From Prochlorococcus sp. MIT 0801 (GTDB lineage Bacteria > Cyanobacteriota > Cyanobacteriia > PCC-6307 > Cyanobiaceae), in the NCBI RefSeq assembly GCF_000757865.1, contig NZ_CP007754.1, forward strand, positions 1,050,001 through 1,082,000: a stretch of DNA of 32,000 nucleotides, written 5' to 3'. The position numbers were made by a program, and so were the translations under genes. Shown in pieces: positions 1 to 24,535 of the stretch; the first letter of the stretch is position 1; each line of letters starts with the position of its first letter. Under the pieces are notes generated by a model. It saw only the letters and a list, made by a program, of their open reading frames with translations, had not been told where the DNA came from and searched no databases.

Positions 1-497
1 CAAAAGTCATTACTGACTACAAAACGTCTACAAGTAAAGAAGGTGGCTCGACAAGTTGTGAGGCTTCATTCTCTACTGCGGGTTTAACATTTGGTGCCAG
101 AGTATTTAAAATAGACGATAATGGCTACGTTACATTTTCATTAAGTCCAGAATTAACATCGATTTCAGAAATAATAAATATACCTGGTTGTGGTGCAATA
201 AATATTCTAAGTGTGAGGCGTTTAGATACAGGAACTTTACGAGTAAAAGACTCTCAGACATTAATTTTAACAGGTGTTATATCAAACAGAGATTCAAAGG
301 TCGTAACGAAAACCCCCATATTAGGAGACATTCCAATACTTGGAAGAATATTTAGATCAAATGCAGGTAGTAAAAGAAAAGGGGAATTAATAATTCTTGT
401 TACCCCTAGAATACTAAACGATTCAGTATCAAACACATCAGAAGTCGGCTTTGATCCAAGTAATGAAGAATCAAAAAATTTCCTTAAAAACAAATGA
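1..497 (+). CDS. pilQ: Type IV pilus secretin PilQ, C-terminal part (5' end outside window; codon phase starts at base 3)
   Basis: Frame 3 is open from the window edge. The translation ...RRLDTGTLRVKDSQTLILTGVISNRD...TPILGDIPILGRIFRS...GELIILVTPRIL matches the conserved secretin C-domain pattern. Confidence 0.85.
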   Translation, partial: KVITDYKTSTSKEGGSTSCEASFSTAGLTFGARVFKIDDNGYVTFSLSPELTSISEIINIPGCGAINILSVRRLDTGTLRVKDSQTLILTGVISNRDSKVVTKTPILGDIPILGRIFRSNAGSKRKGELIILVTPRILNDSVSNTSEVGFDPSNEESKNFLKNK

Positions 498-1174
498 AAT
501 ACAATTCACGTTATAAATTAGATCTACTATGGGAAAGAAGAAATAAAAGTAGCAGTACTCAACTTACATTTACCAATACAAAAAAACTTCGCAAATTGGG
601 TTATTATGGTGGTTGTTTCATTGCAGGAATAGGAATATTAATTTTTTCATTAGGCTTATTTCATACTTATAGAAGAATAAAATTTAAAGAAAAATTAGCT
701 TTAGAATCAAAAGAATATCAAGTATTAAAAAGCAAATTTGAATTATTAAAGAAGGAAGTTAATATTATTTATAGTATTAATAATCGAATCGCAAAAGGTA
801 TTATTGGAACTAGGTCTGGTTCATCATTATTATTAGAGTTGCAAAGAATATTGCCAAAAACCACTCAGATAACATCAATCAGAGTAAAAGATAATAATCT
901 AATATTGACTGGCAAAGTAAAAGAACCTTATGGACTTGACCATATAAATTCATTTAAAGTTCAAATTTCAAATTCGTTCTTAATTAATGATCAATCAGTT
1001 TTTTTGTCAAGAATAAGTAGATCAGATCAAAATAAAAACAACCTAAATTTCCTTATATCATCAAAATTCTCAAATCCATCTACATCAACAATATTAGATA
1101 ATTACGAAAGTCTTAAAACCTATGGACTACTTAAACGTGTTCAGTTATTAAAACAAGAGGGTCTAATAAAATGA
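494..1174 (+). CDS. pilN: PilN-like pilus alignment protein (bitopic)
   Basis: ATGA start/stop overlap with pilQ. Short basic N-terminus, one TM (CFIAGIGILIFSLGLF), coiled coil, then ILPKTTQITSIRVKDNNLILTGKV... as in PilN-type proteins. Confidence 0.6.
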   Translation: MKYNSRYKLDLLWERRNKSSSTQLTFTNTKKLRKLGYYGGCFIAGIGILIFSLGLFHTYRRIKFKEKLALESKEYQVLKSKFELLKKEVNIIYSINNRIAKGIIGTRSGSSLLLELQRILPKTTQITSIRVKDNNLILTGKVKEPYGLDHINSFKVQISNSFLINDQSVFLSRISRSDQNKNNLNFLISSKFSNPSTSTILDNYESLKTYGLLKRVQLLKQEGLIK

Positions 1175-1839
1175 CAAATTTATCCTCTAATAAACTAAAA
1201 AGAAAGTTTATTACACCTGAAAGAACACTACTATTCACGCCTATATTAGTTGGTTTAATTATTTTTGTATCTCTAATGACATTTGCCTTTAGGCCTTTAA
1301 TAAAGAAATTAAACGTAGAAGAAGCAAAGATCAAAACATATGAAACTAAGGTTTCATACATACCAATCTACAAAAGATATATTAAAGATATCTCTAATGT
1401 AAGAAATAAGGTAAGCAATCAGCAAAAGAGATTAGTTGACTTAATTTCTGATCCAAATGAATTAGATACAATACTCGCTCAAATAAATAAACTTTGTATA
1501 AAAAATAATATAAATATACTTTCTATTATTCCTCAAGAAATAGTTAACCAATCAAATAGTAAAGATAAAAATGATCCTTTTTTAATCCCTAAAGTAGAGA
1601 AACATGTCTTCAAAATTAATTTAGAAGGTTCATTTAATGGTCTAATTGATTTCCTTAAAGATTTAGAACTACTTCAGACTATTGTAATTTCAGATAATAT
1701 TAATATACTTGTATCATCTGATAATACAAATAAAATTAATGATAAAAACACTATTAATTTAAGAATGAGTTTTGACTTAAGTACTTATGCAAGAAAAGGA
1801 TCAATAAATAGCTTTAAACAAAATAATAAAAATTTATAA
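1171..1839 (+). CDS. pilO: PilO-like pilus alignment protein (bitopic)
   Basis: ATGA overlap with the upstream gene. N-terminal TM (LLFTPILVGLIIFVSLMTFAF), coiled coil, and a C-terminal ...HVFKINLEGSFNGLIDFLKDLELL... segment typical of PilO. Confidence 0.55.
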   Translation: MTNLSSNKLKRKFITPERTLLFTPILVGLIIFVSLMTFAFRPLIKKLNVEEAKIKTYETKVSYIPIYKRYIKDISNVRNKVSNQQKRLVDLISDPNELDTILAQINKLCIKNNINILSIIPQEIVNQSNSKDKNDPFLIPKVEKHVFKINLEGSFNGLIDFLKDLELLQTIVISDNINILVSSDNTNKINDKNTINLRMSFDLSTYARKGSINSFKQNNKNL

Positions 1840-1843
1840 TTAA

Positions 1844-2314
1844 ATGTTATTTTTCTATGTTGGTATTGGATTCGGAATGTTCACCACAATTTTTGCAATG
1901 CTTCAAACTTCAATGATTTTAAATAAAAAAGTATATATAAATGATAAAAAATTGTTAGATCCAAATGAATTCAATTTGAGGAAACCAAATGATAAAAAAT
2001 TTCTTCAACTATTAAATGAAATGAGTGGTGTATCACTTGGTTCGGGTAATGAAATATGTCAGAATATAAAAAATGGATTCACAGATAAATTAGATACCAA
2101 TTACACTATTCTATCTAAATACTCAGAATTGAATATTTATGAACCTGGAATTGAATCAAATACTAATCATTCAAGATTTATCGGTGGGTGTGACTTAGTA
2201 AAAGATTCACATCGAGTTATTATAGTCCCGAACTCTACAGATATAAATACATACAACTTATATTCGTGCATAATTAATACAGAACCTAAATGTATTTTTG
2301 AATTATCTAATTAA
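1844..2314 (+). CDS. Membrane-anchored protein of the pilus operon, function unknown (non-canonical pseudopilin?)
   Basis: 156-aa ORF 4 nt after pilO-like. Hydrophobic N-terminus (FFYVGIGFGMFTTIFAMLQTSMIL) but no G/E+5 prepilin motif. Confidence 0.5.
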   Translation: MLFFYVGIGFGMFTTIFAMLQTSMILNKKVYINDKKLLDPNEFNLRKPNDKKFLQLLNEMSGVSLGSGNEICQNIKNGFTDKLDTNYTILSKYSELNIYEPGIESNTNHSRFIGGCDLVKDSHRVIIVPNSTDINTYNLYSCIINTEPKCIFELSN

Positions 2315-2320
2315 AAACTG

Positions 2321-2533
2321 ATGATAACCTCATTTATTGGCATATTAATATCATCAATGGCAATGACTGCGCTTATATTGTCAATTCAGTCAATTGAAAA
2401 GTCCTATAGAAGAGCTGGAAAACACTCATTAACAAAATATGAAATTGACATAATAAATACAGCAGGTTTAAATACAGATGAGAATATAAATCTTTTAAAA
2501 AAAGATATTGAGAATCTTCCAAAAGAGTATTGA
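2321..2533 (+). CDS. Small membrane-anchored protein of the pilus operon
   Basis: 70-aa ORF with an N-terminal TM (ITSFIGILISSMAMTALILSI), tightly packed between operon genes. No canonical prepilin cleavage motif. Confidence 0.4.
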   Translation: MITSFIGILISSMAMTALILSIQSIEKSYRRAGKHSLTKYEIDIINTAGLNTDENINLLKKDIENLPKEY

Positions 2534-2539
2534 TCAGTT

Positions 2540-3133
2540 ATGTTTAAAAAGAAAAAACAAAATATATTAAATGGAATAAATTTTATTAACAAGAGCAGAG
2601 GAATGTCATTGGTAGAATTTATTATTTCAATAACATTATTATCACTATTATTTACGATTTATGCTGGTTTCGTTGAGGTCGCATCCAGGTTTACAAATAA
2701 ACAGGTAACTAATTTAGATCAATCAAATGGACTCCTAATAGATCACCACTATATGTCATTGACATTAGACAAATATATTAATTTTCTATCTCAACCAGGT
2801 ATAACATCAAATGATATTGATATTATAAAAAATAAAACATTTTCTGGGCTCCCTGTTGGATGTAGCAGATCTCCAAATATTGAATGGAATATACCAGTAA
2901 GTACAAAACCGATAGCTGGAATTGACTGGAAGCCTTCTAATGCTGGCTATGTAATTTGCTTAAAATCAACATCTATTAATGAAAGTTCTTTAGAAGATTT
3001 AATCTCTAAATCACAAGGTAATATGCTTAATGCTCAAACAGGTTTATATTTCTTGTTAGCCCTACCAGATGAAGTATCATTTAATGCATTACCAATGCGA
3101 AAACTATTCTGTAGGCCACATCCATTCTGTTAA
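2540..3133 (+). CDS. Minor pilin / pseudopilin with prepilin-type N-terminal cleavage-methylation motif
   Basis: Motif ...NKSRG|MSLVEFIISITLLSLLF has Gly at -1, Glu at +5 and a hydrophobic helix. The leader is about 21 aa. Confidence 0.65.
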   Translation: MFKKKKQNILNGINFINKSRGMSLVEFIISITLLSLLFTIYAGFVEVASRFTNKQVTNLDQSNGLLIDHHYMSLTLDKYINFLSQPGITSNDIDIIKNKTFSGLPVGCSRSPNIEWNIPVSTKPIAGIDWKPSNAGYVICLKSTSINESSLEDLISKSQGNMLNAQTGLYFLLALPDEVSFNALPMRKLFCRPHPFC

Positions 3134-3138
3134 TTATC

Positions 3139-5055
3139 ATGGCATTAGAACTTACTGAAAATGAAACTTTTTTTGGATTAGATATATCTATTTTTAAAAA
3201 ACAATTTTTCGCATTTAGGAGAGAAATATCTAAAAGGTATTTCTTACTTGAATTTGGAACTAATTATTTAAAATATGGTGAAGCAAGAGTTACAAATGAT
3301 CAAGTATTTTGTACAAAAATCAATCATATTTCTATAGATCAAGATGCCATTGAAAGAGGAACACCTAAGGATGCTGAAAAAATGGCATCATTTCTTAGAC
3401 AAATAATTGATGAAGAAAAAATTTGGGCTCGTCGTATAGCAATTACACTACCACCAGAGGCATCTTTAACAAAGCTAATTTACCTACCAGCAGAACTAAA
3501 CCACTTGGGAGCTAAAGAATATGTAAGCAGCTCATCATCTGGGTTTCAATTTCCTATATCTTTAGAACAAACTGATTTTGATCTTATACCCATTAACAAT
3601 CTTCCCCTGAACATAAAAAATAATAGTAGAGCTTATTCACTTAGTAGCATTCCAAAGAAGCTTATAGACAACGTTATTAATACATTAGAAAAAGCAAATC
3701 TGGAATTACATTCTCTTGATATCGCATCATCATCACTTGAGAGATTAGCTCTATCTACAATAGAAAATTTAGAAGAAAAAGAAGTTTTTATACTTATAGA
3801 ATTAACAAATGAATGTAGTCATTTTCATATAATTTGTAAAAGCGGTCCAATTTATATTTCTTCGCTTGCTGCTATAAAACCTTTTAATCTACTTGAGAAT
3901 TATGAGGGTGAAGATTCTATCGAAGAGGCAATAATCAATAGTAAAGATTATTTACCAATTTCAGAAATGGATCTTAAGGTTCTTTTTGCAGAAATAAAAA
4001 GAGAAATCGATAATTTTCGTTCTGCATATTCACTAGAAATATCCGAAATCAAACTTTCTGGTATAAATAGTAGTCATCCAAATATTAAAGATTTTTTTGA
4101 AAAAAAATTTAAAATTACAACTAGTATTTTAAGATCCTTAACATCTCAAGATATAGGTGATATAAATCTCTCAAAACCAATATGCATGCAAGATCTAAAT
4201 AGAATGATAGGACTTGGATTAAGTATTATACAAACTGAAAATAGTGATCTTCCTAAGTCGAACTTGAAAGAGATAGATATACAGACTATTAGTAAAAATT
4301 TAAATAAATCTAACAATGATATTAGTAAATTAAAAATCGATAATAATAATAAACTGACTTCAAATCCAAACTTATTAAATATAGAGAATTCAACTAATAA
4401 TACAAACAAGGGAGCAAGTGATAAATCATTTGAGGAATATATTGAAGATACTAATAGAAAAAATATTAACAAATTATCATTTGAAGAATTTTTAGAATTG
4501 AAGAAATCATCAAATAAAACTAATCAATCTTTTCTAGAACAAGCTTCTAAAAAATTTAATAATAACAACGATGTTCTTAAAGAAAATATCAATGAAGTAA
4601 TTAACAAAACTATGGTTCAGAATATAGATACTCTTATTAATAAAGATTCTTCATTAGATATTAATAATAGCAAAATAGAAAGGACTGAATTAAATAAACC
4701 TAAGAAAGAAATCAATACAAAAGAAGAGCAAGAAATAAAAAATAATACTATTAACTATAATTCAGAAAAAATTAATACTATTCTAGAAGAATCAAGTAAA
4801 CTAGATAGCAACAAAGAAATAAAAACTAAATCAGATTCCAAAGAACCAGTAAACAACGAAAATGAAATTAATAGTTTCAATGAAATAGTAACCTCAGAAG
4901 ATATAAACAAAGAATTAGATTTTAAGAATAATAAATCTAATGAATTAGAATTAAAAGAAAGTTCAGAAAGTAACAAAAATACATCGCAATCATTACCATC
5001 AAAAAATAATGAAGATATAAATAATAATACGGATTTTAAAATGCCTGAAATCTAA
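3139..5055 (+). CDS. pilM: PilM-like actin-fold pilus assembly protein with about 270-aa N/K/S/E-rich low-complexity C-terminal extension
   Basis: The first ~360 aa show PilM-like blocks (FGLDIS..., ITLPPEASLTKLIYLP, HSLDIASSSLERLA, ILIELTNECSHFHIICKSG). The rest is low-complexity (NNNKLTSNPNLLNIENSTNNTNK...). Confidence 0.6.
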   Translation: MALELTENETFFGLDISIFKKQFFAFRREISKRYFLLEFGTNYLKYGEARVTNDQVFCTKINHISIDQDAIERGTPKDAEKMASFLRQIIDEEKIWARRIAITLPPEASLTKLIYLPAELNHLGAKEYVSSSSSGFQFPISLEQTDFDLIPINNLPLNIKNNSRAYSLSSIPKKLIDNVINTLEKANLELHSLDIASSSLERLALSTIENLEEKEVFILIELTNECSHFHIICKSGPIYISSLAAIKPFNLLENYEGEDSIEEAIINSKDYLPISEMDLKVLFAEIKREIDNFRSAYSLEISEIKLSGINSSHPNIKDFFEKKFKITTSILRSLTSQDIGDINLSKPICMQDLNRMIGLGLSIIQTENSDLPKSNLKEIDIQTISKNLNKSNNDISKLKIDNNNKLTSNPNLLNIENSTNNTNKGASDKSFEEYIEDTNRKNINKLSFEEFLELKKSSNKTNQSFLEQASKKFNNNNDVLKENINEVINKTMVQNIDTLINKDSSLDINNSKIERTELNKPKKEINTKEEQEIKNNTINYNSEKINTILEESSKLDSNKEIKTKSDSKEPVNNENEINSFNEIVTSEDINKELDFKNNKSNELELKESSESNKNTSQSLPSKNNEDINNNTDFKMPEI

Positions 5056-5063
5056 ATAATTAA

Positions 5064-6206
5064 TTAACCCATCACATTAATCATTTTGAACATTGGTAAA
5101 TATAAAGAAACTACAATTGTTCCAACTATTCCAGCTACAACCATTATCACCATTGGTTCCATAGCTTTTGTTAGAGATGAAACAGCTTCTTCAACCTCTC
5201 TTTTATAAAAATTAGCTAGATTTTCTGTCATAAATCCTAATCTCCCAGTTTCCTCCCCTATTTTCAACATCGACTTTACTAATTTAGGAAAGACATCATA
5301 ACTATCTAATGAGGAAGATAACTCTTGCCCTTCTTTAACTTTTTGAATGCCATTAGAAAGACATCTCTTCATTCGATCATTTGAACTCGCTGAAATGCAC
5401 CTTTGAATTGCTTCAACAAGAGGTATTCCAGAAGCAATTAAAGTAGATAATGTTTCACATAAGGAGGCTACTTCTGAACGTAGAATCAATGAGCCAAAAA
5501 GAGGGATTTTTAAAATTAAACTATCAACACGAAATCTTCCTGATCTAGATTTATAATATGAACTAAATAAATAAGATGTTATTATTAGAATAATTGGCGT
5601 AAATATAAAAAATTGTATTGAAGTTACAATTTGAGATAATGTTAGCATAAATTCTGTTATTGCTGGTAATTCTGCTCCCATATCAGTAAACATTTTATCA
5701 AAGGTAGGTACAATAAAAATTAATAATCCAAGGCTAACAGTTAATGCTAATACAAGAATAATTACTGGGTAAATCAATGCTCCTTGTATTTGGCTTTTTA
5801 TCTTAGCTTGTTGTTCAATAAGAGAAGCAATTCTGTCTAAAATTTGATCAAGAATACCTCCTGCTTCACCTGCCTCAATTAATCCAACTGTTAAAGAAGG
5901 GAAAACCTTTGGATATTTTGCAAAGCATGTTGATAATTCTTCTCCAGCACTCAATCTTTTAGATATCTGAACTTGAAGAGAGCTAAATTTTTGATCTCTA
6001 GTATTTTCAGAAAGTAATTCAATACCTTGAGCTAAAGGAACACCACTTTGAATAATTACAGCTAATTGTCTAAAGAAAACTAATAAATCATTCTGAGAGA
6101 CCTTGAAATCTTTTGGATTGAATTTAACATTTGATTTTTGTGATCTTATATTTGAATTATTCAATCGAGAATAATCACTTAACTGATTTTCACCATAGGA
6201 AGGCAT
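5064..6206 (-). CDS. pilC: Type IV pilus inner-membrane platform protein PilC (GspF family)
   Basis: 380 aa with two GspF-type repeats and TM segments (...LAQGIELLSE..., ...PLVEAIQRC...), ending ...VVSLYLPMFKMINVMG. Confidence 0.9.
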   Translation of the reverse strand: MPSYGENQLSDYSRLNNSNIRSQKSNVKFNPKDFKVSQNDLLVFFRQLAVIIQSGVPLAQGIELLSENTRDQKFSSLQVQISKRLSAGEELSTCFAKYPKVFPSLTVGLIEAGEAGGILDQILDRIASLIEQQAKIKSQIQGALIYPVIILVLALTVSLGLLIFIVPTFDKMFTDMGAELPAITEFMLTLSQIVTSIQFFIFTPIILIITSYLFSSYYKSRSGRFRVDSLILKIPLFGSLILRSEVASLCETLSTLIASGIPLVEAIQRCISASSNDRMKRCLSNGIQKVKEGQELSSSLDSYDVFPKLVKSMLKIGEETGRLGFMTENLANFYKREVEEAVSSLTKAMEPMVIMVVAGIVGTIVVSLYLPMFKMINVMG

Positions 6207-6212
6207 AGTTGT

Positions 6213-7259
6213 TTAATTGTTAATTAGGGCTTTTGGATTTGATGCTTTACTTAAACCTTCCTCTAACGAAATAATATTGGAATCAATCAAATCCTTAAGA
6301 CATTGTTCTAATGTATTCATACCATCCTTACTACCTGTTTGTAATTGTGAATATATTTGACTCACTTTTCTTTCTCTAACAAGGTTTGAAATCGCGGGAG
6401 TATTGATAAGTAATTCATATGCAAGAGATCTCTTTCCAACATTATTTTTGCAAAGAGTTTGAGACATAATTCCTAATAGAGATGTTGAAACCTGGAGTCT
6501 TGCTTGTTCTTGCTGATCCGCTGGGAATACGTCTACAATTCTCTCAACTGTTTTTGCGGCAGAGGAAGTGTGAAGAGTTCCCAGTACTAAATGACCAGTC
6601 TCAGCTGCAGTTATAGCAAGTTGTATTGTTTCCAAATCTCTCATCTCACCTATATAAATTATGTCAGGATCTTCTCTTAATGCCGCTTTCAAAGCCGAAG
6701 TAAAACTTTTAGTATCTCGTTTAACTTCTCTTTGATGAATTATTGAGTTTTGAGAATGATTAAATTCAAACTCTATAGGATCTTCAATAGTAAGAATATG
6801 TCTCTTTTGTGTTTCAAGTATGCAATTAATAAATGATGCCAAAGTAGTAGATTTACCAGAGCCAGTGGGACCAGTACATAGGACTAAACCTCTATGTTTT
6901 GTAGTCAATTCAATGAATGGTTTAGGTAAACCTAAGTCTTGCCATTTTGGTAATTGATCAGGGAGAATTCTCAAAGTGAGACATCTTTTTTCATTTGCAA
7001 TATATGCATTAATTCTTATTCTTGAGAGTCCGTCTAGGCCAATTGAGGTATCTAAATCTCCTGTTTGATTGTATTGATCTAATTTTTCCTTGTCCAAAAG
7101 CTCACTAAGGAGTTGATCCATATCATTCTTACCAAGTATTTTATCTACTAATTGAATATCGGAATTTACTCTGATTGCAATTTGAGAATCTTCTTCAAGA
7201 TGAATATCAGAAGAATCATGTTTTATCGCATATGCAACTATTTGTCTTGCTACAGACAT
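6213..7259 (-). CDS. pilT: Twitching-motility retraction ATPase PilT
   Basis: 348 aa with Walker A GPTGSGKSTT, LREDPDIIYIGEMRD, and AAETGHLVLGTLHTSSAAKTVERIVDVFP, which is characteristic of PilT. Confidence 0.9.
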   Translation of the reverse strand: MSVARQIVAYAIKHDSSDIHLEEDSQIAIRVNSDIQLVDKILGKNDMDQLLSELLDKEKLDQYNQTGDLDTSIGLDGLSRIRINAYIANEKRCLTLRILPDQLPKWQDLGLPKPFIELTTKHRGLVLCTGPTGSGKSTTLASFINCILETQKRHILTIEDPIEFEFNHSQNSIIHQREVKRDTKSFTSALKAALREDPDIIYIGEMRDLETIQLAITAAETGHLVLGTLHTSSAAKTVERIVDVFPADQQEQARLQVSTSLLGIMSQTLCKNNVGKRSLAYELLINTPAISNLVRERKVSQIYSQLQTGSKDGMNTLEQCLKDLIDSNIISLEEGLSKASNPKALINN

Positions 7260-7286
7260 AGTAAATTAAGTATATATATATGTAAT

Positions 7287-8942
7287 TTAATTATGATCAT
7301 CATTACAGATTTTGCTTAATTCTGAAACGGTTGTAATTTTGTTCTCTATAAGCTTCACAGCGTAAGACTTTAAAGTAATCATTCCTTCTGAAACAGCAAT
7401 TTCTTCGATCTCTTGGGTAGAAAGTTGTTTTTTTATAGCATTTGAAATAGGTCTTGTAATTCTTAACAACTCATAAGAACCAACTCGTCCCTTGTAGCCG
7501 ATACCATTACATCTATTACAAAGAATTCCTTCTTTTTTTCTTTGACTTTTCTCTTCAGCTGTTAAACATGTCGCAACTCTTACAGGAGTACCTCTATTTA
7601 AACCTGTAAAGTCTGCTTCTTCAATAGATAATGGTCTTTCAACGCTACAACTTGGGCATACTTTTCTTAGTAGTCTTTGAGCTAGTACACCTCTTAGAGA
7701 AGCCGTTAACTTATATGGAGGAACTTCCATATCTAATAATCTTGTTAAAGAAGTAGAAGCACTATTTGCATGCAAAGTAGTAAAAACTAAATGCCCTGTT
7801 TCAGCAGCATCCATTGAAGATTCCGCTGTTTCAGGATCTCTAGTTTCACCAATTAGAATTACATCTGGGTCTTGGCGAAGAAAAGTTCTTAACAGATTTG
7901 CAAATGTTTGACCTTTTGCTCTAAGTACAGGAAATTGTTGAATATCTCCACCCATATCATATTCAATCGGATCTTCAGCAGTCACTATATTTAATTCTCC
8001 ATTATCTTTCTCTCTCAAAGCTGAAGCCAAAGTAGTTGATTTTCCTGATCCAGTTGGACCAGAAACGATAACAATCCCATTCGCTTGATTAATAATTTTT
8101 CTAAATTGTGATCTAACATTTTCATCTTGAATAAGTATATCCAGATCAAGAACATCAGTATCGTTATTTAGATACCTAAGAACCATTTTTTCACCATATT
8201 TTCCTGGAGCCGTTGAGCACCTAAAATCAAGAGAATTACCTTCCCAAGTCCTTCGAATTTTTCCATCTTGTGAAGCTCTTTTTTCAGCTATATCCATCTT
8301 GGCCATATTTTTTAGACAAGCTGTTAATTTTAAGCCAGGAAGTTTAGGAATGGATACATAACTTTGAAGAACTCCATCTCTTCTAATTCTAATTTTTATT
8401 TGTTTTTCATGAGGCTCTATATGAATATCTGATGCTCCTTTCTTACAGGCATCTATCAAAACCGTGGCAGCTGCTCTTTGAATTTTATTCCCAAGCATTT
8501 CCGTAGATAAATCTATTTCCTCAATCTCTATATCTTCATCACTATCATCAAAATCAAAACCAACAACTTGATCAGACGAATCATCTACAGAAACATCTAG
8601 TAGAGTTTGAATTACATCGTCTTCTGAAAAATCATAATTTTCTAAACCTTCACTATTAAATATCCTTTCTTCTGAGGCTTGATCCAACAAAGATTGAATT
8701 TTGTCGGGAGCTAGTTCTATAAATGCACATTCATATCCATTACTTGCAATTCTTTGCTTAATTGTATTTCCAATAGTTCCAAGATATGAGATATTACCAA
8801 CTGCTATTGTTATTACTTGACCTTTAGGGGGTAGACTTGGCTCAATTTTTAAAGGTACAACTACATTTTCTCTACACCATTGAAGAGATAAATGTTTATC
8901 AATAAGAGATCTTATTTGAGTGACTTGATAGGTATCAGACAT
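7287..8942 (-). CDS. pilB: Type IV pilus extension ATPase PilB (GspE family)
   Basis: 551 aa with Walker A GPTGSGKSTT, LRQDPDVILIGETRD, the tetracysteine CPSC...CNRC motif and GYKGRVGSYELL. Confidence 0.9.
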   Translation of the reverse strand: MSDTYQVTQIRSLIDKHLSLQWCRENVVVPLKIEPSLPPKGQVITIAVGNISYLGTIGNTIKQRIASNGYECAFIELAPDKIQSLLDQASEERIFNSEGLENYDFSEDDVIQTLLDVSVDDSSDQVVGFDFDDSDEDIEIEEIDLSTEMLGNKIQRAAATVLIDACKKGASDIHIEPHEKQIKIRIRRDGVLQSYVSIPKLPGLKLTACLKNMAKMDIAEKRASQDGKIRRTWEGNSLDFRCSTAPGKYGEKMVLRYLNNDTDVLDLDILIQDENVRSQFRKIINQANGIVIVSGPTGSGKSTTLASALREKDNGELNIVTAEDPIEYDMGGDIQQFPVLRAKGQTFANLLRTFLRQDPDVILIGETRDPETAESSMDAAETGHLVFTTLHANSASTSLTRLLDMEVPPYKLTASLRGVLAQRLLRKVCPSCSVERPLSIEEADFTGLNRGTPVRVATCLTAEEKSQRKKEGILCNRCNGIGYKGRVGSYELLRITRPISNAIKKQLSTQEIEEIAVSEGMITLKSYAVKLIENKITTVSELSKICNDDHN

Positions 8943-8957
8943 AAATATAACTACATC

Positions 8958-10283
8958 TTAAAAGCCCATACAGGACCTATACCCGCTTCCATGACAGAGT
9001 GGATCATTTGATAAACCACTACCTTGTTTACACCACATATTAATAAGAAATTTCGGTCCATCTGATTTAGCTAAACATTGAGCATGCGTCGGACAATCGC
9101 CTGCACAATTATTGCCTCCCCCACCATTGCCTCCACCACCATTGCCTCCACCACCATTGCCTCCACCAGTATTAGCACAATTAGAATTATTGTATTCACT
9201 TTCGGTGGTGTATTGAATTTCATCGCACATCCAGAAGGTTTCTCCACAAGTGCCTGGACCTGGATGAGGACCATATTTCCCATCATGAGCTTTTGGGTTG
9301 GCCAATCTTGCTTCATTTCTATTGAAGGAACATTCATCTTCTTGTTGTTGAATTATTTTGGCTTCATTAGCACTAATACATGCATTCATGTCATCTTCAT
9401 CATTTTTTTTATCGCCTAAACAAAAATAATATGTTACCTCGGGTTGACCTGCTCTGACACAACTATTTAACTGACTACTTGACATTGCTCCAGAAAATTC
9501 AGTGGCTTTCTGTGCAAGGATTGCAGCACTACATTCCTTGCCTAAATCTTCTTCCTGTTTTTGTTTATATTCATCTTCATTAGAAACAATATCTCCTTTG
9601 TATAACCAAGTCTCAACTGAGCAATATTCAGTAGAGCATGTGGCAAGAGTACATCCTTGTGTATCAATACTTACATCCCATCTATTTCTTAATCCTGAAC
9701 CTTTAGGAGGACCTAATCTAAAATTACTAAAGTCCGTTTCACATTTTTTAGATTTTTTATCATACTCTTTTTGATACGCCCACTTATCTTTTTGAAGTTG
9801 ACTTGGTCCACAATTAGGACCACCCCATCTTTTACATCTATTAAGGCTAGCTTGATTATCTGCTGGGTCAGATATTTTTGTAACTTGATTATTGGAAGTA
9901 ATTTCATATCCCATTTCAAACAGAATTTTTTCATCAGAACTTATAGGTGTTATATAAAATTCTGAACATTTATCTTTATCAGTTTTAACTTTATATCCTG
10001 TTGGTGAAAGTCGATTGTTATCTATTACAGATGAGGGAGGACTAACTGTCTCTGGGTCAGTTCCACTTCTTGTTGAAGCAAGACATTCGATAAGAGAATT
10101 ATTCATAATTGTCATTGCCTCATCAATCTTTGCGAGTTTTGTCCATTTTGTAATATTTCCTATACCTAATGAACCTAAAATTCCAAGTATTAGTACTACA
10201 AAAGTTAATTCTATTATAGAAAACCCCTCTTCTGAACTAATCAGATGAGGGGGTTTCTTATTAATAGTTTGTATTAAATTCAT
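8958..10283 (-). CDS. Large (441 aa) Cys-rich type IV pilin-like protein with C-terminal GGGGN repeats
   Basis: Prepilin motif ...SSEEG|FSIIELTFVVLILGILG. There are 22 Cys in the globular part and a GGGNGGGGNGGGGNGGGGNN tract. The gene sits between pilA and pilB. Confidence 0.8.
   Translation of the reverse strand: MNLIQTINKKPPHLISSEEGFSIIELTFVVLILGILGSLGIGNITKWTKLAKIDEAMTIMNNSLIECLASTRSGTDPETVSPPSSVIDNNRLSPTGYKVKTDKDKCSEFYITPISSDEKILFEMGYEITSNNQVTKISDPADNQASLNRCKRWGGPNCGPSQLQKDKWAYQKEYDKKSKKCETDFSNFRLGPPKGSGLRNRWDVSIDTQGCTLATCSTEYCSVETWLYKGDIVSNEDEYKQKQEEDLGKECSAAILAQKATEFSGAMSSSQLNSCVRAGQPEVTYYFCLGDKKNDEDDMNACISANEAKIIQQQEDECSFNRNEARLANPKAHDGKYGPHPGPGTCGETFWMCDEIQYTTESEYNNSNCANTGGGNGGGGNGGGGNGGGGNNCAGDCPTHAQCLAKSDGPKFLINMWCKQGSGLSNDPLCHGSGYRSCMGF
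9111..9170 (-). repeat. 15-bp in-frame tandem repeat, 4 units (attgcctccaccacc), encoding the (GGGGN)n tract of the large pilin
   Basis: Direct reading gives units at 9111-9125, 9126-9140, 9141-9155 and 9156-9170. The first and last units are slightly diverged. Confidence 0.9.
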
Positions 10284-10307
10284 CAGAAATTATTAACTAA
10301 TTTCTAA

Positions 10308-10829
10308 CTACCAAACTGAATTTCTACATCCTCTTTCCACAGCATCACCACTAGCAGTACATGTTTTAGCCCCAGTGCCAAGGTTGTATACAAAGCTTGG
10401 ATATTCAGCAGTATTCTCTGAACGAATTTCCATTAAACCAGAACTAGTACAAGTTAGTGGTGTTACAGATGTTGATCTTGTCAGAGTTCCTTGGCCTTGA
10501 TTGTTGAAAACAGTTTGATACCAACCAGCTCCATTTTTGGTACCGTCTCTATATCCATCCAAACTTATCGAAGGAATGTAAGTTCCTGAACCTTGGTCAG
10601 CCATATTTGCTGCACATTCTTTAACAGTTGTAGCAAGAGTAGTAGCAGCAGCAGCAGCTCTTGCTTTACTAGCAATTTTAGTAAACTGTGGAATTGCAAT
10701 AGCCGACAAAACAGCTAATACAGCAACAACAACAACAAGTTCAATTAGAGAAAAACCTTTTTGACCTGGTTTCAAAGATAAAACCTTTTTAACTTTTGAG
10801 CTAGAAAGGTAATTTTGCAACAAATTCAT
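10308..10829 (-). CDS. pilA: Major type IV pilin PilA
   Basis: Motif ...KPGQKG|FSLIELVVVVAVLAVLSAIAIPQF, a C-terminal disulfide loop CTASGDAVERGC, and noticeably GC-richer codon usage than its neighbours. Confidence 0.85.
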   Translation of the reverse strand: MNLLQNYLSSSKVKKVLSLKPGQKGFSLIELVVVVAVLAVLSAIAIPQFTKIASKARAAAAATTLATTVKECAANMADQGSGTYIPSISLDGYRDGTKNGAGWYQTVFNNQGQGTLTRSTSVTPLTCTSSGLMEIRSENTAEYPSFVYNLGTGAKTCTASGDAVERGCRNSVW

Positions 10830-10859
10830 TAGAAACTAATAAATTGATATATTACATAT

Positions 10860-10888
10860 ACTTTATATATATCTTTCCCATTAGACAA
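10860..10888 (-). promoter_or_regulatory. Candidate sigma70-type promoter for pilA (-35 TTGTCT, 17-nt spacer, -10 TAAAGT on the minus strand)
   Basis: Read by eye in the 73-nt gap between the lipoprotein stop and the pilA ATG. The region is AT-rich, so other -10 boxes are possible. Confidence 0.3.
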
Positions 10889-10902
10889 CTAAATGAAATG
10901 AA

Positions 10903-11421
10903 TCATGATTCATTTATATTCTCAGTTTCAAAAAGTTTAATTTCAGCTGAATTCTCTTTATATTTGAGTCTTAATACTCTTGTATCAATATCAATACCTT
11001 CTACTACCCAACCATTTGGCAATAAAGAAGTACTCTCTCCTCCTATATCTCCGACCTGAACTGTTCCTGATTGATCATTGTAAGTAACAAAAACATTTAT
11101 CACGTCATTCTCTGCTATTTGACCAGTAAATTTAAAGCTTTCTGGAATTACCAGTACATTTCCCTCGATTACATCAATAGGTAGAAATGGATTATTTCTT
11201 CCTATTGAAAGATTGTCTATTAATTCTTCAGAAGATTTTAGATTTTCTAATTCTGGAACATCTGTTTTTTCAGGAATAGAAGAAAATTCATTCGGAAAAA
11301 CAGGTGGCTTTATTATCTCTGATAAATTTGTATTGTTTGAAGAGCAAGAGCTAATCAGAGGAATAGTTAAGAAAAGAAGCAATAAATAATGCTTGTTAAT
11401 AATAGAAGAATCCTTAATCAA
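10903..11421 (-). CDS. PilP-like pilus lipoprotein
   Basis: Lipobox LISS|C after a hydrophobic leader. It has an NPF motif (GRNNPFLP) and a C-terminal beta-rich domain (FTGQIAENDVINVFVTY...VQVGDIGG...WVVEGIDIDTRVLRL) as in PilP. TTG start in the ORF track. Confidence 0.55.
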   Translation of the reverse strand: MIKDSSIINKHYLLLLFLTIPLISSCSSNNTNLSEIIKPPVFPNEFSSIPEKTDVPELENLKSSEELIDNLSIGRNNPFLPIDVIEGNVLVIPESFKFTGQIAENDVINVFVTYNDQSGTVQVGDIGGESTSLLPNGWVVEGIDIDTRVLRLKYKENSAEIKLFETENINES

Positions 11422-11538
11422 GTATAAAAATGATAACTTTATTTGATATTACCAATAAATATTCAATTGTCAGAATATTATAAATATTAGTAATTTAGTT
11501 AAAAAGACTTAAACATTTTTAGTTAAAAAAAGATATTC

Positions 11539-12384
11539 TCAAAGATATTTCCACCATAAAATATTTCCAAGTGATTTAATCCAGAATTCGTCACCAAGAA
11601 TCCATACTAAAAAAGTTGAAACACATATAAATGGTCCAAAGGGAATATAATCTCCTCTTCTAATTAAATTTAAACATAATGCTATTACTGAATAAACTGC
11701 ACTAATTAAAAATGATAAAACAATAGTTAATTCTAAACCAATTGTTCCAAGCCATGCTCCACACATTGCAAATAGTTTAATATCACCACCTCCAAATGCA
11801 GGTTTATTGAAGGCAACGAAAACTACCTTACTAAAAATAAAAAATCCAATTATTGAAAAAATATAGGCAAAAAAATGATCTTCTAGTTTGACACTGTTGT
11901 AATCAAAATAGAAAAACTTTGTAATGAGAATTAGTAAAAAACCAATTATTGATCCAGAAAAAGTTAATGAGTCAGGAAGAATCATCTCATCAATATCAAT
12001 TACCGTAAGAACAATTAAGTAAGAAACTAGAATCCAGCTAGAAACCAGTAAAAATAATTCATAGGAAAGATTGTTATAAAAATTTCGATCATAAAAGCAT
12101 AATAGAAATAAAAAAGATGTAATTATTTCAATCAAAGGATATCGAAAAGGAATAGACAAGTTGCAATATCGGCATTTAAATCTTAAAAACAACCAACTAA
12201 GGATAGGAAATAAATCAAAAAAACTAAGTTTTTCTCCACATTTAGGGCAATAACTTCTTTTAAGAATATAAGGCTCTAATTTCGGGAGCCGTAATATAAC
12301 AACATTTAAAAAACTTCCTACACAAGCTCCAAGAATTAATACAAATAATCCATGCATGATATTTATATAGAAAATTGATATCAA
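11539..12384 (-). CDS. pilD: Prepilin peptidase / N-methyltransferase PilD (peptidase A24)
   Basis: Cys motif CPKCGEKL...CRYC, GGGDIKL active-site motif, and multiple TMs. The track start is TTG; an ATG at 12357 (MHGLFVLILG...) is the more likely start. Confidence 0.9.
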   Translation of the reverse strand: MISIFYINIMHGLFVLILGACVGSFLNVVILRLPKLEPYILKRSYCPKCGEKLSFFDLFPILSWLFLRFKCRYCNLSIPFRYPLIEIITSFLFLLCFYDRNFYNNLSYELFLLVSSWILVSYLIVLTVIDIDEMILPDSLTFSGSIIGFLLILITKFFYFDYNSVKLEDHFFAYIFSIIGFFIFSKVVFVAFNKPAFGGGDIKLFAMCGAWLGTIGLELTIVLSFLISAVYSVIALCLNLIRRGDYIPFGPFICVSTFLVWILGDEFWIKSLGNILWWKYL

Positions 12385-12419
12385 AATATATTAAAATTAT
12401 ATATCAATGACTAGTATGC

Positions 12420-12797
12420 TTAAAAAAGAGAGTAAAGACTAGCTAAACATAAAATAATTTTCTTTAAGGAGAATGGTATATAGACAATCAAAACAAACTC
12501 AAATATGCATAAAAAAATATTTAATTTCTTAATTCTCAGAATTGAATTTAATATTAATATGATTATACTGGAATTAATTATTATAGTAAATAACAATCCA
12601 GCTATTAATTGGTTTGTTTTTAAACCAAAAAAAGGGTTTAAAATAAAATCACTGAAGATAAATATATAAGAAATTATGATGGACTCAAATGGATTTAAGA
12701 CTTTAAATCCAAATGGGCTAATCAATGGTAAATAAGGAGCTATTGTTTTCTTAATCATTTTCATAATAAAATATTTAATTAAATATAATAAACTCAA
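12420..12797 (-). CDS. Hydrophobic multi-TM protein, unknown function, first gene upstream of pilD
   Basis: 125-aa ORF with 3-4 predicted TM stretches. TTG start in the track; internal ATGs (IMKMIKK) are possible starts. Confidence 0.4.
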   Translation of the reverse strand: MSLLYLIKYFIMKMIKKTIAPYLPLISPFGFKVLNPFESIIISYIFIFSDFILNPFFGLKTNQLIAGLLFTIIINSSIIILILNSILRIKKLNIFLCIFEFVLIVYIPFSLKKIILCLASLYSLF

Positions 12798-13691: not shown

Positions 13692-13817
13692 CTATACAAT
13701 TCCTGGAATGATCCAGCCTGTTATTCCGTAGTTAATCACAGCTGCAAAGAAGCCCATCATCGCAAGGCGGCCATTCATTTGCTCGGCTGTTTTCCAGTAG
13801 TTAGTTTCTTTGTTCAT
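13692..13817 (-). CDS. hli: High-light-inducible protein (HLIP, CAB-like one-helix protein), 41 aa
   Basis: MNKETNYWKTAEQMNGRLAMMGFFAAVINYGITGWIIPGIV, with the E-x-x-NGR-x-AM motif plus a TM helix. The ATG overlaps the upstream stop (TAATG). Confidence 0.9.
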   Translation of the reverse strand: MNKETNYWKTAEQMNGRLAMMGFFAAVINYGITGWIIPGIV

Positions 13818-13963
13818 TACACAACACCTGGAATGATTTGACCTGTTGTTAGATATGCACCGATGAGTGCCCAGCATCCAACAAATGCTGCGTAACCATT
13901 GAGTCTTTCAGCAATTACTTTGCCTTCTTCTACTCTTGGAGTTTCAGTCGTTTGTTTTTTCAT
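13817..13963 (-). CDS. hli: High-light-inducible protein, 48 aa
   Basis: Manual translation MKKQTTETPRVEEGKVIAERLNGYAAFVGCWALIGAYLTTGQIIPGVV. TAATG overlaps at both ends. Confidence 0.85.
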   Translation of the reverse strand: MKKQTTETPRVEEGKVIAERLNGYAAFVGCWALIGAYLTTGQIIPGVV

Positions 13964-14082
13964 TAAACAACACCTGGGATAAGTTGACCGGTTGTTAGGT
14001 AGATACCTGTTAGTAGAACGAATGCCATCATGGCTGGTCTGCCGATGCTTCTTTCTAGGATTGTTTTGTTAGATGGTTGCAT
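13963..14082 (-). CDS. hli: Short HLIP-like one-helix protein, 39 aa (divergent motif)
   Basis: Manual translation MQPSNKTILERSIGRPAMMAFVLLTGIYLTTGQLIPGVV. It shares the C-terminal TTGQ(I/L)IPGVV with the neighbouring hli genes. Confidence 0.7.
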   Translation of the reverse strand: MQPSNKTILERSIGRPAMMAFVLLTGIYLTTGQLIPGVV

Positions 14083-14102
14083 TGTTATTAGTAGTTATTG
14101 GT

Positions 14103-14309
14103 TTAGAAAATTCCAGGAATGATTTGACCTGTTGTGAAGTATGAAACCAAAAGACTGACCATTCCGATCATTGCCCAACGGCCATTTGTCTTTTCTGCTT
14201 CTTCTGGATAGCTGGTGTAGTCCTCTACAAGCTGTGGCTGTGTTTCACGGCCAAAGATGTTTTGCTTGCCGTACTCAGTGATTACCTGAGAAGAAGATGA
14301 ACTTGTCAT
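14103..14309 (-). CDS. hli: High-light-inducible protein, 68 aa
   Basis: MTSSSSSQVITEYGKQNIFGRE...AEKTNGRWAMIGMVSLLVSYFTTGQIIPGIF. The ATG at 14309 is preferred over the track start at 14339. Confidence 0.85.
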   Translation of the reverse strand: MTSSSSSQVITEYGKQNIFGRETQPQLVEDYTSYPEEAEKTNGRWAMIGMVSLLVSYFTTGQIIPGIF

Positions 14310-14590
14310 TACTGAAATTGCGTTGATGTGAATGAACATAAAGTATTAACTTTGTTGATCAAAGATACGGTCGGGTACGGCTTCTTCTCATCCTTAATAG
14401 CTCTAAACCTCAAACACTAAATACAACAACTAATTAGAGAGATATTTATCCAATGATTAGATCTATTGATGACTCTAATAAGTATAAATAGCCCGAACTG
14501 GTTAGCACTACTTCAACCGTCCTACTCGTATTGAGGGCTTCTTTTATATTTAAATCATCTTTTTATACCAACCAGATCAAACTTTGAGTC

Positions 14591-16049: not shown

Positions 16050-17132
16050 ATGACCACTATTCAGCAGCAGCGTTCTTCGTTGCTCAAAGGTTGGCCACAA
16101 TTCTGCGAGTGGGTTACTTCCACCAACAACCGTATCTATGTCGGTTGGTTCGGTGTATTGATGATCCCTTGCCTTCTTGCGGCAACAACTTGTTTCATCG
16201 TTGCATTTATCGCTGCTCCTCCAGTTGATATCGACGGTATCCGTGAGCCAGTAGCTGGTTCATTCATGTATGGAAACAACATCATTTCTGGTGCTGTTGT
16301 TCCTTCAAGTAACGCTATCGGCCTTCACTTCTACCCAATCTGGGAAGCAGCAACTCTTGATGAGTGGCTATATAACGGCGGCCCTTACCAGCTTGTAATC
16401 TTCCACTTCCTTATTGGTATCTCTGCATACATGGGACGTCAGTGGGAGCTTTCATACCGTTTAGGTATGCGCCCATGGATCTGTGTTGCTTACTCAGCAC
16501 CTGTATCAGCAGCTTTCGCTGTATTCCTTGTTTACCCATTCGGTCAGGGTTCATTCTCTGATGGTATGCCTCTAGGAATCTCTGGAACATTCAACTTCAT
16601 GTTCGTTTTCCAGGCTGAGCACAACATCTTGATGCACCCATTCCATATGGCTGGTGTAGCAGGTATGTTCGGTGGTGCTTTGTTCTCTGCAATGCACGGT
16701 TCTTTGGTTACTTCATCACTTATCCGTGAGACCACAGGACTTGATTCACAGAACTACGGTTACAAGTTTGGACAAGAAGAAGAGACATACAACATCGTTG
16801 CAGCTCATGGCTACTTCGGTCGTTTGATCTTCCAATATGCAAGCTTCAACAACAGCCGTAGCCTTCACTTCTTCTTGGCTTCATGGCCAGTGATTTGTGT
16901 TTGGTTGACATCTATGGGCATCTGCACCATGGCGTTCAACTTGAACGGTTTCAACTTCAACCAGTCTGTAGTTGATACTTCAGGCAAGGTTGTACCAACC
17001 TGGGGTGACGTACTTAACCGTGCAAACCTTGGTATGGAAGTAATGCACGAGCGTAATGCTCACAACTTCCCACTTGACCTAGCAGCTGCTGAGTCTACTT
17101 CTGTAGCTCTTGTTGCACCTGCAATCGGTTAA
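16050..17132 (+). CDS. psbA: Photosystem II reaction-centre protein D1
   Basis: 360 aa with [40 protein letters not shown]..., [23 protein letters not shown] and [14 protein letters not shown] motifs. Codon usage is GC-richer than the flanks. Confidence 0.98.
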
Positions 17133-17151
17133 GTCTTTAACTTGATTTTTT

Positions 17152-17180
17152 AAAGCCCTCTTTTAGAGGGCTTTTTTTTT
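17152..17180 (+). terminator. Rho-independent terminator of psbA
   Basis: Perfect 9-bp stem aaagccctc / gagggcttt with a 5-nt loop, followed by a T-run. Confidence 0.8.
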
Positions 17181-17337
17181 GCAATTTTGGATTTAATAAA
17201 AATAAAAGGAGGGCAACAAGAAATTCTTTATATGGAGTTGTAACTGTTAAGTCCTATATCTCAACCTCTATGCAAAACCTATTAGAGGTTTATAAAGAAA
17301 CAACTGTTTACTACTTATCTTCACGTAGCTCCGCGAA

Positions 17338-17976: not shown

Positions 17977-18072
17977 AGAAGTTCAGATTAATCACTAAAG
18001 TCATTCATGAATTTTGTATGAACTTCTATTTGCACGCATTTAAATTGAATACTGCTTACAATTGAATTTTAA

Positions 18073-18918: not shown

Positions 18919-18996
18919 TGTTTTTTAGCAATTGGCGAACGATAAAAATTTAGGCAACATGTTTTTTGATGAACGTATATCAAAAGATAGACATAC

Positions 18997-19539: not shown

Positions 19540-19701
19540 GATTTAATTAATTGATTATTAGATAAAGTTGATCAAAATCTACTTCTATGAAGTAAAGAGG
19601 GTGAAATAGTTTTCACTGGCTTTACTTGAACTAATGAAAGTATGAAATTTTTTTAGGGTTATTTTTGACATGATCTCTTTTTCCGATCTTATTAGATAAA
19701 A

Positions 19702-19836: not shown

Positions 19837-19885
19837 AATAACCTAAAGATTGCCATTATGTTCTAAAAGATCTGAATATAATATG

Positions 19886-19969: not shown

Positions 19970-19981
19970 TCTTTGGAGTCT

Positions 19982-24533: not shown

Positions 24534-24535
24534 AA

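Follow-up and report, generated by a model that had tools for sequence, protein, structure and literature searches.

A 15-gene cassette of likely type IVa pilus genes with a derived order in Prochlorococcus sp. MIT 0801

We analyzed a stretch of 32,000 nucleotides of contig NZ_CP007754.1 (assembly GCF_000757865.1, positions 1,050,001 to 1,082,000), hereafter the window, from Prochlorococcus sp. MIT 0801, a member of clade LLI. Positions 1 to 12797 of the window hold ~12.8 kb of a 15-gene cassette of ~14.7 kb in total, which very likely encodes a type IVa pilus machine with a derived and genuinely unusual gene order. The cassette is composed of two gene strings, one on each strand, that converge with stop sites 8 nt apart. 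The plus-strand string has the order pilQ-pilN-pilO-x-x-minor pilin-pilM, with ATGA overlaps at the pilQ/pilN and pilN/pilO junctions, and the minus-strand string, from 5064 to 12797, consists of open reading frames (ORFs) of 380, 348, 551, 441, 173, 172, 281, and 125 residues. These observations agree with the original prediction, made from the letters alone, of two convergent operons in which pilQ comes first and is followed by overlapping pilN- and pilO-like genes, pilM is displaced to the end after three small proteins, and a PilP-like gene is located in the opposite operon between pilD and pilA; profile and fold matches to PilP now back the last of these assignments. The same prediction held that every core part of a complete, retractile type IV pilus set was present and intact. 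Hidden Markov models (HMMs), profiles, and fold comparisons supported such a set, of type IVa, and the ORFs are intact where they were placed, except that the window edge truncates pilQ: only its last 164 codons are inside, and the cluster begins ~1.9 kb to the left of the window. The attribution to a Prochlorococcus-type genome was also correct, the encoded PilM being 100% identical to a MIT 0801 protein. The listed genes were all found as intact, tightly packed ORFs by ORF listing and translation, as follows.

1..497 (frame 3-497), plus strand: pilQ 3' end (secretin), last 164 codons and stop; Pfam Secretin
494..1174, plus strand: PilN-like bitopic inner-membrane protein, 226 residues; sub-cut-off Pfam PilN match, family alignment, one transmembrane helix
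1171..1839, plus strand: PilO-like bitopic inner-membrane protein, 222 residues; Pfam PilO, profile match to Myxococcus xanthus PilO
1844..2314, plus strand: 156-residue protein of no known family; conserved position and sequence
2321..2533, plus strand: 70-residue protein of no known family; conserved position and sequence
2540..3133, plus strand: minor pilin, 197 residues; Pfam N_methyl, TIGR02532
3139..5055, plus strand: pilM, 638 residues; Pfam PilM_2
5064..6206, minus strand: pilC, inner-membrane platform, 380 residues; Pfam T2SSF
6213..7259, minus strand: pilT, retraction ATPase, 348 residues; TIGR01420, T2SSE
7287..8942, minus strand: pilB, extension ATPase, 551 residues; Pfam T2SSE, TIGR02538
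8958..10283, minus strand: 441-residue pilin-like protein, partner gene of pilA; prepilin N-terminus
10308..10829, minus strand: pilA (PilA1-type major pilin), 173 residues; N_methyl, TIGR02532
10903..11421, minus strand: PilP-like lipoprotein, 172 residues (159 residues in the NCBI version); lipobox, profile, fold
11539..12384, minus strand: pilD, prepilin peptidase/N-methyltransferase, 281 residues; A24_N_bact, Peptidase_A24
12420..12797, minus strand: 125-residue polytopic membrane protein, last conserved gene of the cassette; position after pilD

Promoter-like and terminator-like signals in the window (75 and 3, respectively) were not in excess over shuffled sequence (78.9 and 3.8), and the operon limits are drawn from gene spacing only.

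The identity of each core part is backed by an HMM, a profile, or a fold match, with PilN below the cut-off of its model. The 164-residue PilQ fragment matched Pfam Secretin with 89.7 bits and also the GspD, MshL, and PilQ models of NCBIfam. On a read-assembly contig that is 100% identical to the window (L001), the pilQ frame is open for at least 549 codons, and PilQ orthologues have 779 to 800 residues (797 and 779 in loci L002 and L003, respectively, which are introduced below). PilN scored 19.1 bits against Pfam PilN (E 0.0013), under the cut-off of 22.8; its Synechococcus orthologue scored 34.3 bits with this model. PilN of MIT 0801 aligned over its full length with the PilN-like proteins of both sets found in Synechococcus and in Prochlorococcus of clade LLIV, and has a single transmembrane helix (residues 35 to 59), as expected of a PilN, and an N-terminal LDLL..RR motif; its architecture and gene position suit this putative assignment. 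Comparison of a PilN-family profile with PDB sequences matched no PilN. PilO scored 26 bits against Pfam PilO (cut-off 22) and 22.6 bits against T2SSM_b, has a single transmembrane helix (residues 17 to 45), and belongs to a family whose profile matched M. xanthus PilO (3jc8_Oa; E 1.8e-6). PilM scored 54.1 bits against Pfam PilM_2 (cut-off 27) and matched TIGR01175 with an E value of 9e-12, under the cut-off of that model; the PilM-family profile matched PilM of Thermus (2ych; E 0.0014) and of M. xanthus (3jc8_Ma; E 0.004). NCBI names the 100%-identical MIT 0801 protein "type IV pilus biogenesis protein PilM." The protein has no transmembrane helix and comprises an actin-like cytoplasmic domain (approximately residues 1 to 370) followed by a 268-residue low-complexity tail (4250-5055) composed of 20% N, 14% K, 12% E, and 12% S, with a conserved D-F-x-M-P motif at its end. 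Among relatives, the tail is repetitive and ranges from ~170 to 430 residues; that of L002 (11100-12136 of this locus) contains ~4 near-identical repeats, each of ~45 residues.

The lipoprotein encoded between pilD and pilA had no Pfam or NCBIfam match, and its assignment consequently required profile and fold evidence. It possesses a lipobox (LISSC), a GRNNPF motif, and a C-terminal beta domain. Close homologues are few; an exhaustive HMMER search with a five-sequence profile recovered 200 relatives at an E value of 1e-3 or less. Pfam searches on 60 members of this family (59 of them distant relatives) gave no PilP match, and the profile of a first, shallow alignment matched nothing in the PDB. 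The 60-sequence profile matched M. xanthus PilP (3jc8_Pa; E 4.2e-4) over a region that runs from the lipobox Cys through a common G-R-x-D/N-P-F motif into the C-terminal domain. The AlphaFold2 model of the lipoprotein contains a six-strand C-terminal domain with a predicted local distance difference test (pLDDT) score of ~85. Among the top six Foldseek matches of this model in the PDB, five are PilP (2ivw, 2lc4, 4av2_M, and 2y4y, from Neisseria and Pseudomonas) or GspC (3oss_C), and the sixth is Legionella LspC (7oio). The match to 3oss_C, the GspC homology region, had a TM-score of 0.69 and a root mean square deviation of 2.6 A, and the fold matches, with E values of 0.03 to 0.3, were weak but concordant. 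We therefore designate this protein PilP-like with moderate confidence, on the basis of its sequence profile and predicted fold, an assignment that fits the report that cyanobacterial PilP is encoded apart from pilMNOQ (PMC12288463).

The motor, platform, and peptidase genes gave the strongest matches. PilT scored 419.6 bits against the PilT/PilU family model TIGR01420 (cut-off 319.1) and 174 bits against T2SSE. PilB scored 340.5 bits against Pfam T2SSE, its best NCBIfam match being TIGR02538 (PilB; 395 bits, under the equivalog cut-off of 676). PilC scored 193.7 bits against Pfam T2SSF, with two repeats, and its best NCBIfam matches were the PilC and GspF models. For both PilB and PilC, the equivalog models were thus the top matches yet remained under their strict cut-offs. 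PilD scored 105.3 bits against Pfam A24_N_bact and 61.8 bits against Peptidase_A24. In all, the HMM searches that had been suggested as a check of the original prediction were passed by most parts, but not by PilN, which stayed below its cut-off, or by the lipoprotein.

PilA contains the prepilin motif GFSLIE (cleavage site KG|FSLIE) and a C-terminal disulphide loop, and scored 34.1 bits against Pfam N_methyl and 33.2 bits against TIGR02532. Its sequence is identical to that of Pro_MIT0801_1246, which is listed as PilA1 in Supp. Data 1 of Aguilo-Ferretjans et al. 2021 (PMC7994388). The GFSLxE motif variant noted for Prochlorococcus in the same paper is the one present in pilA of MIT 0801. In the 197-residue minor pilin, the prepilin signal is canonical (KSRG|MSLVEF) and a CRPxPFC loop is found at the C-terminus; the protein exceeded the cut-offs of N_methyl (22.4 bits; cut-off 21.2) and TIGR02532 (18.2 bits; cut-off 16.3), and 7 loci keep both the G|MS(L/V)(L/V)E motif and the pair of C-terminal Cys. 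The third candidate, the 441-residue protein, has a prepilin N-terminus (EEG|FSIIEL), a transmembrane helix at residues 18 to 46, 22 Cys, and a (GGGGN)x4 tract that is encoded in frame by a tandem repeat at 9111-9168 (15 bp x 3.9 copies, 97% matches) and may act as a length-variable linker. Its match to N_methyl is weak (E 0.15), and its N-terminus matches PilA-type NCBIfam models (E 5.5e-4). Homologues with 24 to 44% identity adjoin pilA in every related locus that reaches this far; in L009 the contig end cuts the position.

In type IVa systems that are well studied, the core set comprises four minor pilins. Among the minor-pilin candidates of the MIT 0801 cassette, the N_methyl threshold was passed by the 197-residue protein alone, and no PilY1-like gene was found in the cassette, so that a complement of four core minor pilins plus a PilY1-type tip protein is not seen. 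The cassette does contain three conserved proteins that have no Pfam or NCBIfam match. The 156-residue protein has an N-terminal hydrophobic helix that is not preceded by a leader peptide, and four conserved Cys. Its 45 homologues, nearly all of 153 to 156 residues, are invariant at M1, F3, F4, Y5, G7, and G9 (M-x-F-F-Y-x-G-x-G) and at C72, C116, C142, and C150, and the gene occupies the same position in all related loci. In its AlphaFold2 model (pLDDT 72), the N-terminal helix is accompanied by three more helices and a 4-strand sheet. A fold search of this model against the PDB gave no significant match (best E 0.68), which we treated as noise, and the protein, lacking the prepilin motif and any match to a pilin fold, was not called a pilin; it may be a non-canonical pilin-like or a periplasmic accessory protein. 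The 70-residue protein, which has a hydrophobic N-terminal transmembrane helix (residues 1 to 25) and lacks a canonical prepilin motif, occurs at the same position and with a conserved sequence in the Prochlorococcus, LLIV, and Synechococcus loci. The 125-residue protein has approximately three hydrophobic segments, and homologues with 40 to 49% identity directly follow pilD in L002, L003, L010, and L011. Judging by position, the small proteins might serve as non-canonical minor pilins or as assembly factors, but this is a guess.

The same gene order and orientation were found, as far as the contigs reach, in five other Prochlorococcus loci of low GC content (30 to 33%). Two of them are from single-cell genomes and were found by a genome scan (L002 and L003), and three were found by exact-protein look-ups (L009, L010, and L011). 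Identity to the window proteins in these loci was 85 to 92% for PilT, 77 to 88% for PilB, 69 to 83% for PilC, 45 to 62% for PilA, and 43 to 52% for PilN and PilO; taken together, the pilins and PilN/PilO span 38 to 62%. Published locus tags place pilQ and pilC seven gene numbers apart in MIT9211 and MIT0601, as they do in MIT 0801, so that these two strains share the spacing to judge from the numbering only. The order that had been termed non-canonical is thus the rule among the low-GC Prochlorococcus loci examined. The order of the "standard cyanobacterial pilMNOQ operon" was found neither in MIT 0801 nor in the five related loci.

Two sets of additional observations concern these relatives. 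In L011, pilT was called as three pieces of 266, 55, and 45 residues (10690-11741 of this locus), which may reflect decay or an assembly error, and a further gene for a T2SSE-family ATPase (465 residues) lies upstream of pilQ on the opposite strand. A minor pilin and a PilM of the picocyanobacterial type (29 to 35% identity) were also found in L004 and L005 (GC content of 50% and 62%, respectively), which are labelled as proteobacterial metagenome-assembled genomes; L004 additionally has PilQ, PilN, and PilO homologues. Both are probably mis-binned Synechococcus-like contigs.

A different, split organization was observed in three loci, from the LLIV strain Prochlorococcus MIT 1318 (L006) and from marine Synechococcus (UW106, L007; and L012, which is cut at its left end and shows the second block only, from a DsbA-like gene onward). 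The first part of the split locus encodes a PilM-like protein of 278 to 332 residues, PilN1, PilO1, and PilQ. Three reverse-strand genes follow (for a pentapeptide-repeat protein, a protein of unknown function, and a DsbA-like protein) and then a second block, consisting of PilN2, PilO2, two small genes, a minor pilin, and PilM, that converges on pilC-pilT-pilB-large pilin-pilA. The second block is orthologous to that of MIT 0801, the arrangement of the convergent string is the same, and the PilT and PilB proteins are 80 to 81% and 64 to 68% identical, respectively, to those of the window; over all related loci, PilT is 80 to 92% identical to its orthologues. In contrast to the MIT 0801 cassette, these loci have the upstream pilM-like/N1/O1/pilQ operon and the three reverse-strand genes before the second block, a GC content of 49 to 54%, and conserved housekeeping genes as flanks (an aminotransferase and a GT28 glycosyltransferase), and the pilD, lipoprotein, and 125-residue genes do not adjoin them. 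The first gene of the first set had no match in Pfam, nor did its profile in the PDB; a profile-profile comparison identified its product as remotely related to PilM (hhalign E 4.6e-5, probability 69%).

PilN and PilO of the window are nearer to the second set than to the first. The low-GC cassette has neither the first M/N/O set nor the three intervening genes, and pilD, the pilP-like gene, and the 125-residue gene adjoin pilA. Loss of the first M/N/O set and of the three intervening genes very likely joined pilQ directly to the second block. The presence of a recognizable PilM_2-family gene at the end of the second block also explains two earlier statements, namely that PilM and PilO of the "standard pilMNOQ operon" of WH7803 were assigned by position only (PMC7994388) and that MIT9303 and MIT9313 were scored in a review as being without pilM.

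The MIT 0801 cassette has the part list of the canonical type IVa system of M. xanthus and Pseudomonas aeruginosa (3JC8), namely PilQ, P, O, N, M, C, B, T, and D and major and minor pilins, with PilN and PilP as putative members. It differs from that system in the order of the genes, Q-N-O-...-M rather than M-N-O-P-Q, in the location of pilP in the other operon, in the 268-residue disordered tail of PilM, in the absence of PilY1 and of a set of four minor pilins, and in the three conserved proteins of unknown family. Synechocystis PCC 6803 and Synechococcus elongatus PCC 7942 resemble MIT 0801 in that pilB, pilT, and pilC are adjacent and pilP is apart from pilN/O/Q (PMC12288463). Unlike MIT 0801, both have the M-N-O-Q order, several pilin sets, and competence genes; in MIT 0801 the parts are gathered at a single locus, and the published table reports no competence genes.

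These comparisons bear on a more far-reaching reading, in which the cassette is a minimal, horizontally exchanged type IVa module of streamlined Prochlorococcus lineages and the 156-, 70-, and 125-residue proteins are new components that take the place of PilY1 and the usual four minor pilins. Since the minimal set keeps the second N/O/PilM block alone, in such a scheme that block, and not the "pilMNOQ" assigned by position in the literature, would be the true alignment complex of marine picocyanobacteria, and the first set would be an accessory paralogue. We consider this reading tentative and rather doubtful as a whole.

We consider horizontal exchange of the cassette, taken by itself, somewhat more likely than not. 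The flanks are common to L002 and L010 (asparaginase-II-like and RsfS genes on one side, an epimerase gene on the other) and differ from these in L003, L009, and MIT 0801, where high-light-inducible (hli) genes and psbA stand on the right side. Nucleotide similarity between L002 and L003 is limited to the cassette. The cassette has a GC content of 29.8%, versus 34.4% for the rest of the window and 34.9% for the MIT 0801 genome (PMC7994388, Supp. Data 1). The distribution is patchy: no pilus genes are tabulated for NATL1A, NATL2A, and PAC1, which are other LLI isolates (same source), pilA1 is present in 33% of Prochlorococcus isolates, and pilA1 and the pilus apparatus are present in about a quarter of single-cell genomes (21 to 29% for LLI; PMC7994388). 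Together, the differing flanks, low GC content, and patchy distribution suggest that the cassette moves or is repeatedly lost. Neither Rfam models, applied at their gathering thresholds, nor a tRNA scan gave a match anywhere in the window, so that a tRNA-linked island boundary is not visible, and neither a tRNA nor a repeat was seen to bound the cassette within the window.

Alternatively, the MIT 0801 cassette might be an inactive remnant that is disappearing from a streamlined genome, as could be argued from the absence of the cassette in the closest cultured relatives, the three-piece pilT of L011, and the region of tiny orphan ORFs that the cassette adjoins. We consider this very improbable, because all 15 ORFs are intact in the window, lengths and key motifs are kept across six loci and across the 45 homologues of the 156-residue protein, and Prochlorococcus pilA1 is transcribed in the Tara metatranscriptomes (PMC7994388). 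Moreover, the protein identity of PilT and PilB (77 to 92%) compares with a DNA identity of ~79%, indicating purifying selection; synonymous sites are likely saturated at the 65 to 79% DNA identity found between loci.

The cassette probably encodes a functional, retractile pilus of the PilA1 flotation type. In WH7803, PilA1 pili were shown experimentally to keep cells suspended and to reduce grazing, and pili of ~10 um were seen by electron microscopy; in MIT9313, PilA1 was found in the exoproteome of planktonic, not of sedimenting, cultures (PMC7994388). WH7803 and MIT9313, from the group of organisms to which MIT 0801 also belongs, have a machine of this kind, in which pilA is likewise paired with a larger pilin-like gene. 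Pilus production has been shown only for WH7803, WH7805, BL107, and MIT9313 (PMC7994388). Based on orthology of PilA1 with that of WH7803, a flotation and anti-grazing function is the one that we would favor for MIT 0801, with some reserve. Adhesion and phage-receptor roles are possible.

The steps of assembly that follow are derived from established type IVa biology, the parts and their conservation being what was observed here. The underlying mechanism model is reportedly that of Chang et al. 2016 (structure 3JC8) and Craig et al. 2019. PilD would cleave and methylate the prepilins, namely, PilA, the 441-residue pilin-like protein, and the 197-residue minor pilin. PilB would power polymerization via the platform protein PilC, and PilT would power retraction. 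Cytoplasmic PilM would bind the N-terminus of PilN, and PilN, PilO, and the PilP-like lipoprotein would bridge the inner-membrane parts to PilQ, through which the fibre would exit. The minor pilin would probably prime or cap the fibre, perhaps together with the anchored 156- and 70-residue proteins and the 441-residue pilin. Long pili would then raise drag, keep the cells suspended, and lower grazing, as in WH7803.

Much of this had been published. Aguilo-Ferretjans et al. 2021 (PMC7994388, Supp. Data 1) tabulated PilQ, PilC, PilB, and PilA1 of MIT 0801 (Pro_MIT0801_ tags 1235, 1242, 1244, and 1246, respectively), and our literature searches on MIT0801 pili and on Prochlorococcus pili and flexible genome found nothing beyond that paper and reviews. 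Since the pilus genes of MIT 0801 were tabulated in 2021 and the role of PilA1 was shown in WH7803, both the existence of the cluster and its likely role are already on record. The novelty implied by the original prediction therefore does not hold, the more so as the gene order is the norm in the low-GC loci; of the refuting condition set with the original prediction, one half is borne out, in that the cluster had been described and its order does not vary among carriers, but the other half is not, since the cluster is not universal in close relatives, being absent from NATL1A, NATL2A, and PAC1. The finding is mostly a confirmation and is not new in kind. The present analysis contributes the complete list of parts, among them a candidate for PilP and a pilM that has been displaced, as well as the findings that one paralogous M/N/O set was lost and that the genes are consolidated in the manner of a cassette. 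Neither the Q-N-O-x-x-pilin-M order nor the second N/O/M block is described in the 2021 paper, nor are the PilP-like gene and the nearby position of pilD. The "PilE" tabulated there for MIT 0801 is the distant gene 1509, not the 441-residue gene beside pilA (PMC7994388). The product of gene 1509 is a pilin-like protein of 337 residues with a lectin-like C-terminal part.

DNA uptake, which the original prediction had also listed among the possible roles, is unlikely. According to this explanation, retraction of a competence pilus would bring DNA to ComEA/ComEC and the strain would be naturally transformable. PilT is indeed present, and in Synechocystis and S. elongatus DNA is taken up by means of type IV pili (PMC7125226; PMC7994388). 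However, the PilA2, PilA3, ComEA, and ComEC columns are empty in the MIT 0801 row of the published BLAST table, and in that study PilA3 was always accompanied by ComEA and ComEC, it being the reverse association that defines the competence type (PMC7994388). Furthermore, the pilin of the cassette is of the PilA1 type, and no com gene was recognized among the window ORFs examined. We accordingly rate a competence pilus as highly improbable.

Least probable of all is that the genes encode type II secretion, or some other type IV filament machine that is not a pilus, and serve to secrete proteins rather than to build pili. In favor of this, GspD models give the secretin fragment slightly higher scores than PilQ models do, PilO also matches GspM, the scores of PilB and PilC against GspE and GspF are almost as high as against the Pil models, and the PilP-like domain also resembles GspC. 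Against it, the cassette has a retraction ATPase of the PilT family that clears its cut-off (420 bits), PilM_2 forms a separate protein and not a GspL fusion, the cassette has no GspH-K pseudopilin set, and the pilin is listed as a PilA1 homologue of the WH7803 pilin forming ~10-um pili seen by electron microscopy, so that the combination expected of type II secretion (no retraction ATPase, a GspL/GspM/GspC platform, and GspG-K pseudopilins) is not found.

Several points nevertheless weigh against a functional type IVa flotation pilus carried on a mobile cassette. PilN of MIT 0801 is under the Pfam cut-off; the fold E values of the PilP-like protein are weak (0.03 to 0.3), and its profile match amounts to only 23 bits. 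There are only one or two canonical minor pilins and no PilY1-like protein, and what is proposed for the roles of the 156-, 70-, and 125-residue proteins is guesswork. In MIT 0801, the left end of the cassette lies outside the sequence covered, and the low GC content could reflect a content of membrane and low-complexity proteins rather than a foreign origin. Finally, the proposed function is transferred from a Synechococcus whose PilA1 has little in common with that of MIT 0801 outside the N-terminal helix.

Prochlorococcus is the most abundant phototroph of the ocean, and pili that keep cells suspended and limit grazing bear on carbon export, a point made in 2021. The part list now includes a PilP candidate and a displaced pilM that is easily missed and that reviews gave as absent or positional. 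That the cassette keeps one of the two M/N/O sets of Synechococcus provides guidance on which genes to delete first, and the cassette, patchy in its distribution and variable in its location, clearly exemplifies a large, multi-gene trait of the flexible genome in Prochlorococcus.

The remainder of the window was also inspected. To the right of the cassette, four tandem small ORFs on the minus strand (13692-14339; 61, 48, 39, and 78 residues) all end with TTGQ(I/L)IPG(V/I)(V/F), and two of the four match Pfam Chloroa_b-bind, identifying an hli gene cluster. The psbA gene (D1 protein, 360 residues; 16050-17132, plus strand) forms a local GC peak of 46.8% in DNA of ~33% GC. The ~15 kb that follow (17133-32000) contain no ORF of more than 212 residues and almost no Pfam match (one PAP_fibrillin fragment at 19097-19471), and resemble a hypervariable genomic island composed of small orphan genes. 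Two paralogous ORFs of this region, at 21711-22253 and 24111-24533 on the minus strand, have a common "...RKDCPV(R/K)N..." core.

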